Virus record (IMG/VR): IMGVR_UViG_2734482774_000015
Source of the DNA: a virus
Taxonomy: Duplodnaviria; Heunggongvirae; Uroviricota; Caudoviricetes
Direction: 5' to 3' (one strand)
DNA length: 18,985 bases
The position numbers and the translations under genes were made by a program. The notes below the pieces were generated by a model, which saw only the letters and a list, made by a program, of their open reading frames with translations, was not told the DNA's origin and did not search any database. Shown here one piece after another: positions 11,765-15,723 of the stretch (its first letter is position 1; the number at the start of each line of letters is the position of its first letter).

Positions 11765-12304
11765 TCATATCGCCCCCAGCATGGTAGTAACCATCGCCAT
11801 CAATGGACCAGCCAGATCTGGGTCCACACGAAACATCGACACAATACCTTCACTAATTTCCTTCAGTTTCTGGTGGCGTGGTGCGTTGAGAATGACAGCC
11901 TGTTTTGCCTCACTGAGTTCCTTTTCCATTTCAGCCAACCTAGCCATGAAGCTATCCTGCTCAACCAGGTAACCGCGATATTCCAGCGGTAGTACCGCCA
12001 GAATTGCCGGGGTCAGTTCACGCACGTTATTTCGGTATTTTTCAGAATCGAATTTGTTATCGAGGAAGCGGAACAGCTTCTGGCGTGCACGGCTGACATC
12101 ATCAGGGAAATCGATGGTGCCGCCGCCCTGCTCCCGATACTCATTCACAATGAGTGTGGCAACGACATCCTGATTATCTTCAGCCGACCAAGCGCGGACG
12201 GCATCACGGATTTTTTCGTGGCCTGGCACCTGTTTTGTTTGAGAACGATTTATCACCGCAGTCGGGCTAAATCCGCTAGTCTGTTGGTATGTAAGTGGTT
12301 GCAT
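11765..12304 (-). CDS. YdaT-like protein in the cII position (179 aa)
   Basis: ATG preceded by AAAGGAG. Located directly downstream of the cro-like gene. Weak recalled resemblance to the Rac YdaT family (IRDAVRAW..., ARQKLFRFLDNK...). Function not established here. Confidence 0.5.
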   Translation of the reverse strand: MQPLTYQQTSGFSPTAVINRSQTKQVPGHEKIRDAVRAWSAEDNQDVVATLIVNEYREQGGGTIDFPDDVSRARQKLFRFLDNKFDSEKYRNNVRELTPAILAVLPLEYRGYLVEQDSFMARLAEMEKELSEAKQAVILNAPRHQKLKEISEGIVSMFRVDPDLAGPLMAMVTTMLGAI

Positions 12305-12373
12305 AATTGACTCCTTTAGTTTGAATTGACTGTTAAGTTGATTGCTTATTGTTAAAGAGCGTGAAATGGAAAT

Positions 12374-12604
12374 TTAAGCTGCGTTCTTTTCGGTGTGTGG
12401 AAACAACTTCGGAAGATCCGGGCGAATCTGGTATGCCTTCACTACTCCACCAGTAGCCGTAACAATGCTGCCGACATGTTCAGGGGATACCTTTGCTTTG
12501 TTGTGAAGCCACTTATAGACGGCCTGCTGTGAAACTTCGCAAGCAGCGCCCAGTTTCTTTTGTGAACCAACGATATTGATCGCTGTTTTGATAGCTGGGT
12601 TCAT
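12374..12604 (-). CDS. cro: Cro-like HTH regulator, YdaS-like (76 aa)
   Basis: Divergent from cI across a 104-bp operator region. Putative HTH (QKKLGAACEVSQQAVYKWLHN). GGAGG lies 5 nt upstream of the ATG. Confidence 0.75.
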   Translation of the reverse strand: MNPAIKTAINIVGSQKKLGAACEVSQQAVYKWLHNKAKVSPEHVGSIVTATGGVVKAYQIRPDLPKLFPHTEKNAA

Positions 12605-12708
12605 AACAACCTCCGTGGTTAATTTGAATCAAGATTAAAACTATGGTTGTTTTTAGTCAACAACCATTTTCGTTTGATGGAATAAAACCTTGGTTGTACA
12701 TTTGGACT
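12605..12708. promoter_or_regulatory. oR-like divergent control region: pR for cro (minus strand, -35 TTGACT, -10 TAATCT) and a likely leaderless pRM-type start for cI
   Basis: Minus strand reads TTGTTGACTAAAAACAACCATAGTTTTAATCT, then GGAGG and the cro ATG. Dyad elements ATGGTTGT...ACAACCAT and TTAATTTGAATCAAGATTAA are present. The cI ATG at 12709 has no recognisable Shine-Dalgarno, as for λ cI. Confidence 0.65.
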
Positions 12709-13398
12709 ATGAAAACAACACTCTCAGAAAGACTTAAAGAAGCCAGATTAGCGCGAGGCCTTACACAAAAGGCGCTTGGGGATTTGGTCGGGGTTAGCCA
12801 AGCTGCTATTCAGAAAATCGAAACAGGGAAAGCTAATCAAACAACTAAAATCGTGGAGATCGCGAACGCTTTGGGTGTGCGCGCAGAATGGTTATCTTCT
12901 GGCGTTGGAAATATGTCAGACAGTACAGTGCAACCAATACAATCAACTGTCAGCCATTCCAAATACTTCAAGATTGACGTTCTTGATATAGAAGTCAGTG
13001 CTGGGCCGGGAGTCATCAACCGTGAGTTTGTAGAAGTTCTACGCTCGGTTGAGTACTCGTTTGACGATGCTCGTCACATGTTCGATGGTAGGAAGGCGGA
13101 AAATATCCGCATCATTAACGTGCGTGGTGACAGCATGTCAGGAACGATCGAACCAGGTGATCTGCTGTTCGTTGATATCACAGTTAAATCTTTCGACGGT
13201 GATGGTATCTATGCGTTTCTGTACGACGACACAGCCCATGTAAAGCGCCTGCAAATGATGAAGGATAAGCTGCTGGTCATCTCTGATAACAAAAGCTACT
13301 CACCGTGGGACCCGATCGAGAAAGACGAGATGAACCGGGTGTTCATCTTCGGTAAGGTTATTGGGAGCATGCCGCAGACATATAGGAAGCATGGTTAA
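12709..13398 (+). CDS. cI: CI-type prophage repressor with LexA-like S24 autopeptidase domain (229 aa)
   Basis: N-terminal HTH (LTQKALGDLVGVSQAAIQKIETGK), candidate Ala-Gly cleavage site (EVSAGPG), catalytic Ser in RGDSMSGTIEPGDLLFVD and Lys in HVKRL. The upstream ATG at 12643 would place coding sequence over the operators and is rejected. Confidence 0.9.
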   Translation: MKTTLSERLKEARLARGLTQKALGDLVGVSQAAIQKIETGKANQTTKIVEIANALGVRAEWLSSGVGNMSDSTVQPIQSTVSHSKYFKIDVLDIEVSAGPGVINREFVEVLRSVEYSFDDARHMFDGRKAENIRIINVRGDSMSGTIEPGDLLFVDITVKSFDGDGIYAFLYDDTAHVKRLQMMKDKLLVISDNKSYSPWDPIEKDEMNRVFIFGKVIGSMPQTYRKHG

Positions 13399-13520
13399 AG
13401 TGAGGCTAAAAAACAGTTACAGCAATAGGCCTGTTGTTTTTCTTTAAACACGCAGTGTTAAACCGCTCTTTGAGATGCGGAGTAATGAGATGGAAGACTT
13501 GAATCACATAAGGGTTAGTG

Positions 13521-14270
13521 ATGGAGTGCGTAGCGAGCAGCAATAGTGCAATACCTAATGTCGTTGAAGTAATACGTCGCATCAATGAAGGTTCCACTCA
13601 GCCATTTCTTTGCAAATGTGATGATGGGCAGTTGTATGTTTTGAAGTCAAAACCATCAATGCCCCCGAAAAATCTCTTAGCTGAGTTCATTTCGGCGTGT
13701 TTGGCTAATGATATCGGCCTTCCTTTACCTGACTTTAAAATCGTATTTGTGCCAGAGGAACTTATAGAGTACTCACCTGATCTGCAGCAACAAATTTGTA
13801 CAGGATATGCCTTTGCTTCATTGTTCATTGACGGTGCAATAGCGTTAACGTTTACGCAGTCAAGAAACGAAACGATCATCCCAGTCGAACAGCAAAAATT
13901 AATCTATGTTTTTGATAAATGGATATTAAATGCAGACAGAACGCTTACTGACAAAGGTGGAAACGTTAACATCATTTATGACATCAGTAACGATAAGTAT
14001 TATCTGATTGACCATAATCTCTCATTTGATCAGAATGCTGGACCTGAAGATTTTTCTGTGCACGTGTACGGCCCTGGTAACCGCAAATGGCAATATGATT
14101 TAGTGGATCGCGTAGAGTACCGCCAGAGGGTCGTTAACAGTTTACACAAGCTTCCTGCTATCCTTGACGAAATTCCAGAAGAGTGGATAGTAGATGAGGA
14201 GTTTTTACCTTTTGTCTGCACTACGCTAGACAAAGGTGATTGTGATGAATTTTGGAGCGCAATAGAATGA
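13521..14270 (+). CDS. Uncharacterised protein with HipA-like / kinase-like catalytic motifs (249 aa); first gene of the cassette occupying the rexA slot
   Basis: Intact ORF 120 bp downstream of cI on the same strand. Motifs FDKWILNADRTLTDKGGN and IIYDIS resemble the HipA_C catalytic and Mg-binding Asp loops. AAGGG lies 7 nt upstream of the ATG; an alternative GTG start lies at 13518. The family assignment is inference from motifs only. Confidence 0.65.
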   Translation: MECVASSNSAIPNVVEVIRRINEGSTQPFLCKCDDGQLYVLKSKPSMPPKNLLAEFISACLANDIGLPLPDFKIVFVPEELIEYSPDLQQQICTGYAFASLFIDGAIALTFTQSRNETIIPVEQQKLIYVFDKWILNADRTLTDKGGNVNIIYDISNDKYYLIDHNLSFDQNAGPEDFSVHVYGPGNRKWQYDLVDRVEYRQRVVNSLHKLPAILDEIPEEWIVDEEFLPFVCTTLDKGDCDEFWSAIE

Positions 14271-15094
14271 CAACTCCATGCCTATATAGCATCGTTCGCT
14301 ATGCGCCTTATGCGGAGACTGAAGAGTTCGCAAACATAGGCGTACTTCTGTGCGCGCCAAAAGAAAATTACTTTGATTTCCAGCTCACAAAGCGAAATGA
14401 CTCTCGTGTAAAGAATTTTTTCCATGATGATTGTATTTTCCCTGTAGCAAAAGACTCAATACAAAGAGAACTACAGTTCGCAAAAATGCATGCGACCCAG
14501 ATTGTTGGACATCAACAACTTGCACAATTCTTCAGATATTTTACAAACAAAAAAGAATCAATTTTTCAGTTCAGTTCTACGAGAGTGATTCTCAGCGAAA
14601 ACCCAAAAGAAGAGCTGGCCCGCATTTACAATAAATATGTAAACCACTCTGACTACACAAAAGAGCGCCGTGAAGATGTTCTAGCCAGAGAGCTAAAACG
14701 AAGTATCGATAGAATAGATGGATTGAAGAACGTCTTCAAACAAGCAACCATTGATGGGTATTTCGCAAAGTTCTCAATGCCATTGGTCGCCAAGAAGCAT
14801 GACAGGATCCAATGTGCCATCAAACCTCTGGCATTCACTCAAGCTGAACCAGGAAAAATGATGGAGCATAGTGATACTTGGGTGATGAGAATAACTCGAG
14901 CAGCAGAAGAAAACCTGCTTTCACTTGATGACATTTTATTCACAATTGAAACTCCTGAATCACCAAACTCAGGCCAAAGCAAAGTTATTGACATCATAAA
15001 GAGAACTATGGATGCTAAGAAAATAAATCATATACCTGCATCCAACCACAAAGAAACTATTGATTTTGCAAAAAAAATACTTCCCCAAGTTTAA
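14267..15094 (+). CDS. Uncharacterised protein with DUF3037-like N-terminus (275 aa); second gene of the cassette, translationally coupled to the first
   Basis: The ATG overlaps the upstream stop (ATGA); GGAG lies 9 nt upstream. The N-terminus CLYSIVRYAPYAETEEFANIGVLLCAP matches my recollection of the DUF3037 signature. Followed by a strong terminator. Confidence 0.65.
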   Translation: MTTPCLYSIVRYAPYAETEEFANIGVLLCAPKENYFDFQLTKRNDSRVKNFFHDDCIFPVAKDSIQRELQFAKMHATQIVGHQQLAQFFRYFTNKKESIFQFSSTRVILSENPKEELARIYNKYVNHSDYTKERREDVLARELKRSIDRIDGLKNVFKQATIDGYFAKFSMPLVAKKHDRIQCAIKPLAFTQAEPGKMMEHSDTWVMRITRAAEENLLSLDDILFTIETPESPNSGQSKVIDIIKRTMDAKKINHIPASNHKETIDFAKKILPQV

Positions 15095-15128
15095 AATTTA
15101 TTTTTGTATGTGATATTCCTTATTAATA

Positions 15129-15156
15129 ACCCGGCCACCGTGCCGGGTTTTCTTTT
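15129..15156 (+). terminator. Rho-independent terminator ending the cI-downstream cassette
   Basis: ACCCGGC-CACCGT-GCCGGGT stem-loop followed by TTTTCTTTT on the + strand. Confidence 0.75.
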
Positions 15157-15288
15157 GCCTCCCCTCATCACACAAACCGCTCAAAAAACCACCATAACCT
15201 CGCTTCAGTTATCGCTATGCGATTCAAGTCACAAAATAAATCCATCCTAAATACAACCAGTTATATCTAAAACAACCAATAAAACAAC

Positions 15289-15326
15289 TTTTGTTGTTGA
15301 CGGTAAAACAACTATAGTTTTAAATA
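15289..15326 (+). promoter_or_regulatory. oL/pL-like promoter-operator, a near copy of the pR core
   Basis: TTGTTGACGGTAAAACAACTATAGTTTTAAATA here versus TTGTTGACTAAAAACAACCATAGTTTTAATCT at pR. Upstream operator-like repeats ACAACCAG, ACAACCAAT and the palindrome CAACTTTTGTTG lie at about 15252..15296. Confidence 0.6.
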
Positions 15327-15723
15327 GGTTCATCGCAACAACACAACGATACGGCAACCACCTGATTCACCGTTGCGATGACCGCTTAGATCCGCAGTTT
15401 GAATTTCAGCAGGCTTCGGGGAGTGCGAGGGGTGAAACGGACGCGTGAACGTCGGTGTGACCAGCTGAAATCAACTCAACATTTCATACCTTAGTCGCTT
15501 CAACGAGGCGGCTTAGTTATGACAACCGGCGGCCATCCACCGCCTGAATACGCGCAGAAGTCTCTATATGTTCAGCAGCCCAGCTTCACAGCGATGCCAG
15601 AGTCTGTAGTGTCAGATGATGACCGTACTCAAACATCGGGTTGAGTATTATCTTACTGTTTCTTTACATAAACATTGCTGATACCGTTTAGCTGAAACGA
15701 CATACATTGCAAGGAGTTTATAA

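Follow-up and report, generated by a model that had tools for sequence, protein, structure and literature searches.

The question raised by this locus is whether a short sequence near 15.3 kb, which lies beyond the repressor gene and nearly repeats the sequence in front of cro on the opposite strand, represents a second operator-promoter region under the control of the same repressor. The locus is part of a lambda-like prophage, and "the window" is used here for the whole 18,985-bp stretch of DNA that was analysed, in which the plus strand corresponds to the "leftward" direction of lambda. An earlier note on this DNA had proposed two near-duplicate promoter-operator cores, one of them driving cro and the other acting as a repressor-controlled leftward promoter directly after a cassette terminator. 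The analysis presented here indicates that the 15.3-kb site is very probably the OL/pL region of a lambda-like (Bievrevirus-type) prophage, and the 12.6-kb site its OR/pR/pRM region.

The repressor locus and its relatives

Between 12300 and 15586 the window is 99.9% identical to phage PhiR5_1, whose record gives the gene order Cro, cI, 'HipA', 'HipD', Kil. The genes and the terminator that frame the two sites are as follows.

12374-12604, minus strand: cro, 76 aa, with a YdaS/P22-Cro-like HTH and the recognition helix VSQQAVYK (Pfam PF15943, 4e-17); annotated as Cro in PhiR5_1
12709-13398, plus strand: cI, 229 aa, with a 434-like HTH N-terminal domain (helix 3 VSQAAIQK) and an S24 autopeptidase C-terminal domain
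13521-15094, plus strand: cassette comprising a HipA_2 kinase and a DUF3037 protein (PADLOC PDC-M66A/B; HipA/HipD in PhiR5_1)
15128-15157, plus strand: strong intrinsic terminator (stem 15128-15149 plus T-run), closing the cI-cassette unit

The cI product matches Pfam HTH_3 (5e-13) and Peptidase_S24 (1e-18), and the residues needed for self-cleavage are present: Ala-Gly (in VSAGPG), Ser (in GDSMSG) and Lys (in HVKRLQ). Its start is most plausibly at 12709 rather than at 12643. The records of PhiR5_1 and PhiR34_1 give a cI of 251 aa that begins with the ATG corresponding to 12643, inside the predicted pR and OR1-OR2; other records and the promoter geometry described below favour the start at 12709, which is probably leaderless. 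The Pfam assignments on the opposite strand (11765-12604, minus) place Cro in the YdaS family and 'cII' in the YdaT family, which are right-operon regulators of the Rac-prophage type rather than lambda Cro and CII.

Relatives of this cI are encoded by at least 588 IMG/VR loci, and the best 80 of these at least 588 are 100% identical to it. The same immunity is found in PhiR5_1, PhiR34_1, IdasGreatGrand, PhiR47_2, PhiR26_1 and Turner, in which cI, cro, OR and OL are 96-100% identical to those of the window; PhiR5_1 also carries the same HipA/'HipD' cassette. Operators and promoters are unannotated in the public records of the same-immunity phages, and full-text literature searches found no description of the operators of this immunity type and no report of their binding, footprints or transcripts.

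In relatives the slot between cI and the terminator is either empty or occupied by other cassettes ('GevT/GevA', a lipoprotein and others), and in the alignment the terminator is kept in all of them, whatever the cassette. The window thus has a defence-type cassette in the slot equivalent to that of rexAB, between cI and the terminator and 5' of OL, a position in which it is most likely co-expressed with cI in a lysogen and insulated from pL. The cassette is flanked by a perfect 10-bp inverted repeat, GACTTGAATC / GATTCAAGTC (13496-13505 / 15221-15230).

A near-duplicate pair of sequences

The near-duplication between 12.6 kb (minus strand) and 15.3 kb (plus strand) was borne out, approximately 28 of 33 aligned columns being identical with two 1-bp indels. 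Read from 12664 to 12628 the minus strand is GTTGTTGACTAAAAACAACCATAGTTTTAATCTTG, and the plus strand from 15292 to 15328 is GTTGTTGACGGTAAAACAACTATAGTTTTAAATAGG. A repeat search recovered the two copies as an inverted pair of 19 nt with 95% complementarity (12635-12653 / 15305-15323), adjoined by a second inverted pair of 23 nt with 74% complementarity (12656-12678 / 15279-15301). Within the 18,985 bp the 19-mer AAAACAACYATAGTTTTAA, which is immediately preceded on its 5' side by GTTGTTGAC in both copies, matches with up to three mismatches only at 12635-12653 (minus) and 15305-15323 (plus). As 0.03 matches were expected by chance, and two or more matches occurred in none of 200 shuffles, the duplicate is real and not a chance resemblance.

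The 30-bp core to which the earlier note had drawn attention is therefore real, but the similarity extends beyond 30 bp: in a local alignment, read in promoter orientation, OL (~15244-15323) and OR are colinear over their full length, and the aligned stretch takes in a third TACAACCA site. The 17/18-bp spacer that had been counted within the core is off by about 1 bp, a trivial difference that depends on the placement of the -10.

Operators

The half-site suggested beforehand, ACAAC or CAAC-N4-GTTG, proved to be right. When the window was scanned for the 14-16 bp dyad AACAAC-N4-GTTGTT (AACAACNNNNGTTGTT), five of the six matches with up to two mismatches fell within OR or OL, control regions of about 100 bp each. 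One of the six (15283-15298) is perfect, and the others, with one or two mismatches, begin at 15307 (OL1), 12636 (OR1), 12659 (OR2), 12605 and 17225; the last lies inside int and is probably a chance match. The sites assigned are listed below, with scores out of the 12 half-site positions.

12605-12620: operator-like dyad 'OR0', AACAACCTCCGTGGTT, 11/12; overlaps the cro Shine-Dalgarno and abuts the start codon
12636-12651: OR1, AACAAC CATA GTTTTA on the cro strand, 10/12; no variation in the half-sites among 21 haplotypes
12659-12674: OR2, AACAACCATTTTCGTT, 10/12
12683-12698: OR3, TACAAC CAAG GTTTTA on the cro strand, 9/12 (three mismatches); overlaps the pRM spacer and -10
15252-15267: OL3 candidate, TACAAC CAGT TATATC; left half strong, right half weak, ill-defined
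15271-15276, plus strand: isolated AACAAC half-site, polymorphic and poorly conserved
15283-15298: OL2, AACAAC TTTT GTTGTT, 12/12, a perfect 16-bp palindrome and the sole site in the window with no mismatch; overlaps the pL -35 by 2 bp
15307-15322: OL1, AACAAC TATA GTTTTA, 10/12; falls within the pL spacer and extends into the -10

At the sequence level OR comprises three dyads within the 104-bp cI-cro intergenic region, overlapping the predicted pR and pRM, and a second cluster of the same operators lies beyond cI, where OL2 and OL1 overlap a predicted promoter co-oriented with cI. The start-to-start spacing is 24 bp between OL2 and OL1, 23 bp between OR1 and OR2 and 24 bp between OR2 and OR3; OR3 was also found as a direct repeat in the repeat search. 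The TACAAC at 15252 was taken as the OL3 candidate on account of its distance from OL2 (31 bp) and its colinearity with OR3, and it is nearly invariant among the haplotypes. The half-site at 15271 was not counted as an operator on account of its polymorphism and is probably non-functional. The 'OR0' dyad is situated 31 bp from OR1, and its right half contains two singleton polymorphisms. A lone AACAAC (15337-15342) occupies an analogous place 3' of pL, but within the leader that is common to both immunity alleles described below.

The variation within the immunity type was followed in 37 OL and 21 OR haplotypes. Half-site positions were variable in 4 cases out of 60, against 39 of 116 unassigned intergenic positions (Fisher p=3.8e-5, a value that is approximate as the haplotypes are related by descent). 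The central 4 bp of the operators do vary, as would be expected for bases without protein contact. As judged from these polymorphisms, the half-site positions are under purifying selection.

Exchange of the immunity modules

Evidence for the function of the 15.3-kb site also comes from phages of a different immunity. In an alignment of the terminator-to-kil region of seven phages, the site falls within a single discrete segment.

15238-15332, plus strand: immunity-specific OL/pL block, 95 bp, present in two unrelated versions between nearly invariant flanks

Left of cI, the two immunity alleles differ in no other segment. When the window is compared with the hetero-immune phages 4A7, Perceval and PhiR68_2 (Bievrevirus), only this block and 12306-12841 are replaced, the latter holding cro, OR and helices 1-3 of cI (the first ~45 codons), whilst the flanks (cII/O/P, the remainder of cI, the terminator, the spacer and the leader) are 87-98% identical. 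The differences between cI and the cI of 4A7 are confined to helices 1-3, the C-terminal domain and helices 4-5 being identical in the sister allele, and the change in the recognition helix of cI is accompanied by one in that of Cro: VSQAAIQK and VSQQAVYK in the window are replaced by VAQPTIWR and VAQPTVWR in 4A7. The sister allele has in common with the window the terminator, the spacer, the pL leader, the cII/O/P flanks, the position of the promoter and a 5+4+5 operator architecture; it differs in its half-site, ATAGC/ATACG as opposed to ACAAC, and in its pL hexamers, TTGATA and TATTAT. Its ATAGC-N4-GCTAT dyads are found at the same aligned place, inside TTGATA-17-TATTAT, and also in its own OR.

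Linkage between the two replaced segments was analysed in IMG/VR loci anchored on the shared leader, 116 of which were usable and 101 of which had a visible cI. Only two OL alleles exist among the 116 loci, and the pairing with cI is complete: 48 loci combine an ACAAC-type OL with a window-type cI, 53 are of the 4A7 type for both, and none of the 101 is discordant. The distance from cI to pL ranges from 0.9 to 2.6 kb and falls into many classes, some of them common to both alleles; the intervening cassette has thus been exchanged repeatedly. The block swap together with the lack of discordant pairs is characteristic of operators that match their own repressor. The proposal of a repressor-controlled leftward promoter at 15.3 kb is consequently supported at the level of sequence, since the site swaps with the repressor helices, remains linked to them across 101 loci and is co-oriented with cI.

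These results bear on two other readings of the duplicate. The first would have the similarity arise simply from two related sigma-70 promoters, the 15.3-kb copy having no operator role, and it can account for the TTGAC and the AT-rich -10 region that occur in both copies. It leaves unexplained, however, the perfect 16-bp palindrome of OL2, the conserved ACAAC halves beside variable centres, and the exchange of the block with the cI and Cro helices with 0/101 discordant pairs; we find it scarcely credible. The second accepts the location and function of the sites but takes the operator to be a dyad of lambda length, the 17-bp AAAAC-N7-GTTTT, with its centre shifted by 1.5 bp. Because three of the five operators have GTTTT for GTTGT in one half, this model fits about equally well, scoring by hand 10/10 for OL1 and OR1, 9/10 for OL2 and 8/10 for OR2 and OR3. 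Against it, the outermost positions that it adds to OL2 (15281 and 15282) are polymorphic whereas 15283-15290 are invariant, the N-terminal domain of cI can be aligned without gaps to the homologous 434 repressor, a user of 14-bp sites, and the 5+4+5 dyads of the sister allele favour the shorter operator. The 17-bp dyad is in our judgement improbable, and the 14-16 bp dyad AACAAC-N4-GTTGTT is retained in what follows.

Predicted promoters

The promoter elements that accompany these operators are candidates as to both their hexamers and their start sites.

12632-12637, minus strand: pR -10 candidate, TAATCT, with a 17-bp spacer
12655-12660, minus strand: pR -35, TTGACT, read from sequence
12674-12702, plus strand: pRM candidate, TTGATG-17-TACATT, its -10 invariant in the haplotypes
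15297-15302, plus strand: pL -35, TTGACG, aligned with TTGATA of the 4A7-type pL
15320-15325, plus strand: pL -10 candidate, TTAAAT, with a 17-bp spacer, aligned with TATTAT of the 4A7 type

When the two alleles are aligned, the hexamers of the putative pL, TTGACG-17-TTAAAT, coincide exactly with those of TTGATA-17-TATTAT in the sister allele, and none of the 37 haplotypes has a change in the pL -10; TAAATA with an 18-bp spacer is an alternative -10. The pRM start is predicted at ~12709, the A of the cI ATG, which would make the message leaderless and would place the centre of OR2 at approximately -42.5 and OR3 at approximately -18.5. Lambda cI is also leaderless, and positions of ~-42 for OR2 and ~-18.5 for OR3 are those of activation and autorepression in lambda and 434. 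With respect to the terminator, the 15.3-kb site does follow it, as had been proposed, but not directly: a conserved spacer of ~90 bp comes first and then the 95-bp OL block. The site lies ~150 bp beyond the terminator of the cI-cassette unit, in the same orientation as cI. A palindrome, ATCGCTATGCGAT, is found at 15211-15223, within the invariant spacer that separates the terminator from OL.

A generic sigma-70 consensus scan called neither pL nor pR, both of which have weak -10 candidates: TTAAAT is without A at position 2, and TAATCT matches the consensus at 3 of 6 positions. The scan also returned fewer promoter-like sites in the window than in shuffled sequence (7 vs 9.1) and is thus uninformative here. 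Its sole match at this place is on the minus strand, TTGCGA-16-TATAGT (15338->15311), with a -10 that agrees with the consensus at five of six positions, and it could be read as a promoter from which an antisense transcript of the HipA-like/DUF3037 cassette would issue under repressor control. However, TATAGT is no more than the centre of the OL1 palindrome, the scan that called it finds more in shuffles, and by inspection the 4A7-type allele has no minus-strand equivalent yet possesses a strong plus-strand TTGATA-17-TATTAT. The minus-strand promoter was rejected on this comparison and is considered highly improbable; the plus-strand pL is the preferred assignment.

The pL leader and the truncated pL operon

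Downstream of the OL block are the following features.

15333-15518, plus strand: pL leader, 186 nt, almost invariant across both immunity alleles
15519-15644, plus strand: truncated kil, the first 22 codons of which match PhiR5_1 Kil; junction at ~15584-15586

The leader has a completely invariant core (15438-15471), and its 3' part (15482-15542) matches HK225 and phi80. ATCGC and GCGAT occur again near the beginning of the leader (15332, 15375). This lineage is N-less: no N gene is found after pL, the first gene being kil in the relatives and, in truncated form, in the window, and no nut site was found after pL. Antitermination of the HK022 put type was rejected at the level of sequence, as there is no put-like sequence after pL and no second copy after pR, although a structural analogue dissimilar in sequence may exist. 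The putL of HK022 (located in NC_002166) aligned to the leader with a local score of 16, compared with a shuffle mean of 14.5 (sd 2.2), the comparison of HK022 put with the pR transcript gave no significant similarity, and the leader core occurs only once in the window. Rfam returned no match in the whole window at the gathering threshold and only chance-level matches in 15100-15700 in a permissive scan, and the leader has no significant fold (z-score -0.15).

A 31-codon TTG-initiated ORF (15399-15494, plus strand; MNFSRLRGVRGVKRTRERRCDQLKSTQHFIP) within the leader contains an Arg-rich stretch (KRTRERR) that recalls the ARMs of N proteins. The ORF is without a Shine-Dalgarno sequence and has 5 synonymous and 8 non-synonymous changes, a substitution pattern that is the same as in the other frames and hence gives no coding signal. 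The combination of a near-invariant leader and the lack of an N gene raises the possibility of a new N-independent element after pL, that is, a processivity or regulatory element in the form of either a cis RNA unrelated to put or the Arg-rich 31-codon ORF; a milder proposal is that the asymmetry of ACAAC and AAAAC half-sites sets an order of cI versus Cro affinities unlike that of 434 or lambda. We attach only a low probability to these suggestions.

In the PhiR5_1 group pL leads into an intact kil-gam-bet-exo operon, whereas in the window the kil-gam-bet-exo of the relatives is missing and the truncated kil is joined to lambda ea8.5-xis-int. From 15584 onwards the sequence is 100% identical to lambda ea8.5/xis/int DNA, and the DNA to which kil is joined at the junction is 100% identical to lambda 29795-29279 (upstream of ea8.5). 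It could therefore be asked whether OL/pL is an intact but functionless relic in a defective prophage that has lost kil to ea22, with pL leading only into kil'-ea8.5-xis-int. Both the interruption of kil after codon 22 by DNA of the lambda ea8.5 region and the absence of a match spanning the kil'-ea8.5 junction in any of 5,426 complete RefSeq E. coli genomes speak for such a fate. On the other hand, the free phage PhiR5_1 (PV340545.1; complete genome, host E. coli C) has an identical OL block, the window has intact ORFs for cI, cro, O, P, xis and int, and repression of pL would still be needed to silence xis and int. We regard a relic as unlikely, and this reading concerns the current use of the site and not its identity as OL/pL.

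A model for the switch

Repressor binding, its cooperativity, the activity of the promoters and looping between OL and OR are here inferred from sequence, and the following scheme is to be read accordingly. Dimers of cI would bind 14-16 bp dyads of the consensus AACAAC-N4-GTTGTT, and occupation of OL1 and OL2 would cover the -35, the spacer and the -10 of pL, such that cooperatively bound cI would exclude RNA polymerase. The three OR sites would occlude pR in the same manner and would in addition regulate pRM, OR2 being at the activating position of this putatively leaderless promoter and OR3 over its core. As the recognition helix of Cro is similar to that of cI, Cro would be expected at the same sites. 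Self-cleavage of cI, stimulated by RecA, would free both pL and pR, and pL would then drive an N-less operon, which here is truncated to kil' fused to lambda ea8.5-xis-int.

If correct, this scheme settles the arrangement of the control elements in an immunity type that is very common among E. coli prophages. Furthermore, the ACAAC-type and ATAGC-type alleles, with identical flanks and an identical cI C-terminal domain, form a clean natural pair for a change of specificity in a 434-type HTH.

Comparison with lambda, 434 and HK022

In lambda the gene order is cro/cI/rexAB/pL, and it is matched by the order cro<-OR->cI-cassette-terminator-OL/pL-> of the window. Lambda operators are multipartite, with 17-bp sites of which OR1/OL1 lie in the spacer/-10 and OR2/OL2 at the -35. 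The window resembles lambda in this placement, in the operator spacing of 23-24 bp and in the S24 domain of its repressor. However, it has 14-16 bp ACAAC dyads, a repressor N-terminal domain of the HTH_3/434 type, a Cro of the YdaS/P22-Cro family, and HipA_2 and DUF3037 in place of rexAB. It is also unlike lambda in having no N/nutL after pL, and the lack of N and nut likewise sets its pL apart from those of the 434, 21 and P22 type, whilst the lack of a recognisable put RNA sets it apart from HK022.

The closest relationship of the DNA-binding domain is to 434. Among solved structures, the cI N-terminal domain is matched best by the 434 repressor (1per_L, E=4.5e-9, no gaps), residues 5-68 aligning with 2-65 at ~37% identity by hand count, and BLASTP against the cI of lambda imm434 gave 3e-16. 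The equivalents of 434 Gln28, Gln17 and Arg10 are kept, the Gln that reads base 1 being conserved, whereas three recognition residues are changed (Gln29->Ala, Ser30->Ala and Gln33->Lys). The 14-bp ACAA-N6-TTGT sites of 434, as found in lambda imm434, are spaced by 23 and 22 bp at OR and by 23 and 31 bp at OL, as compared with 23 and 24 bp and with 24 and 31 bp, respectively, in the window. OL2 fits the 434 pattern exactly (ACAACTTTTGTTGT); OL1, OR1 and OR3 have TTTT for TTGT, and OR2 has ACGA. Unlike 434, the window has C at position 5 and, in the weaker halves, either C or A at position 2. In 434 the start site is occupied by OR1 and the spacer by OR2, whilst the placement of the window operators relative to pR is that of lambda. 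Fold and geometry are thus shared with 434 but the contact residues differ, and the immunity of the window is not imm434.

The C-terminal domain of cI is instead HK022-like, the protein being 41% identical overall to HK022 cI as compared with 29% to that of 434. Viewed as a whole, and as far as sequence can tell, the immunity architecture is that of an ordinary lambdoid phage and would function as the lambda switch does. Conceptually, nothing in it is new.
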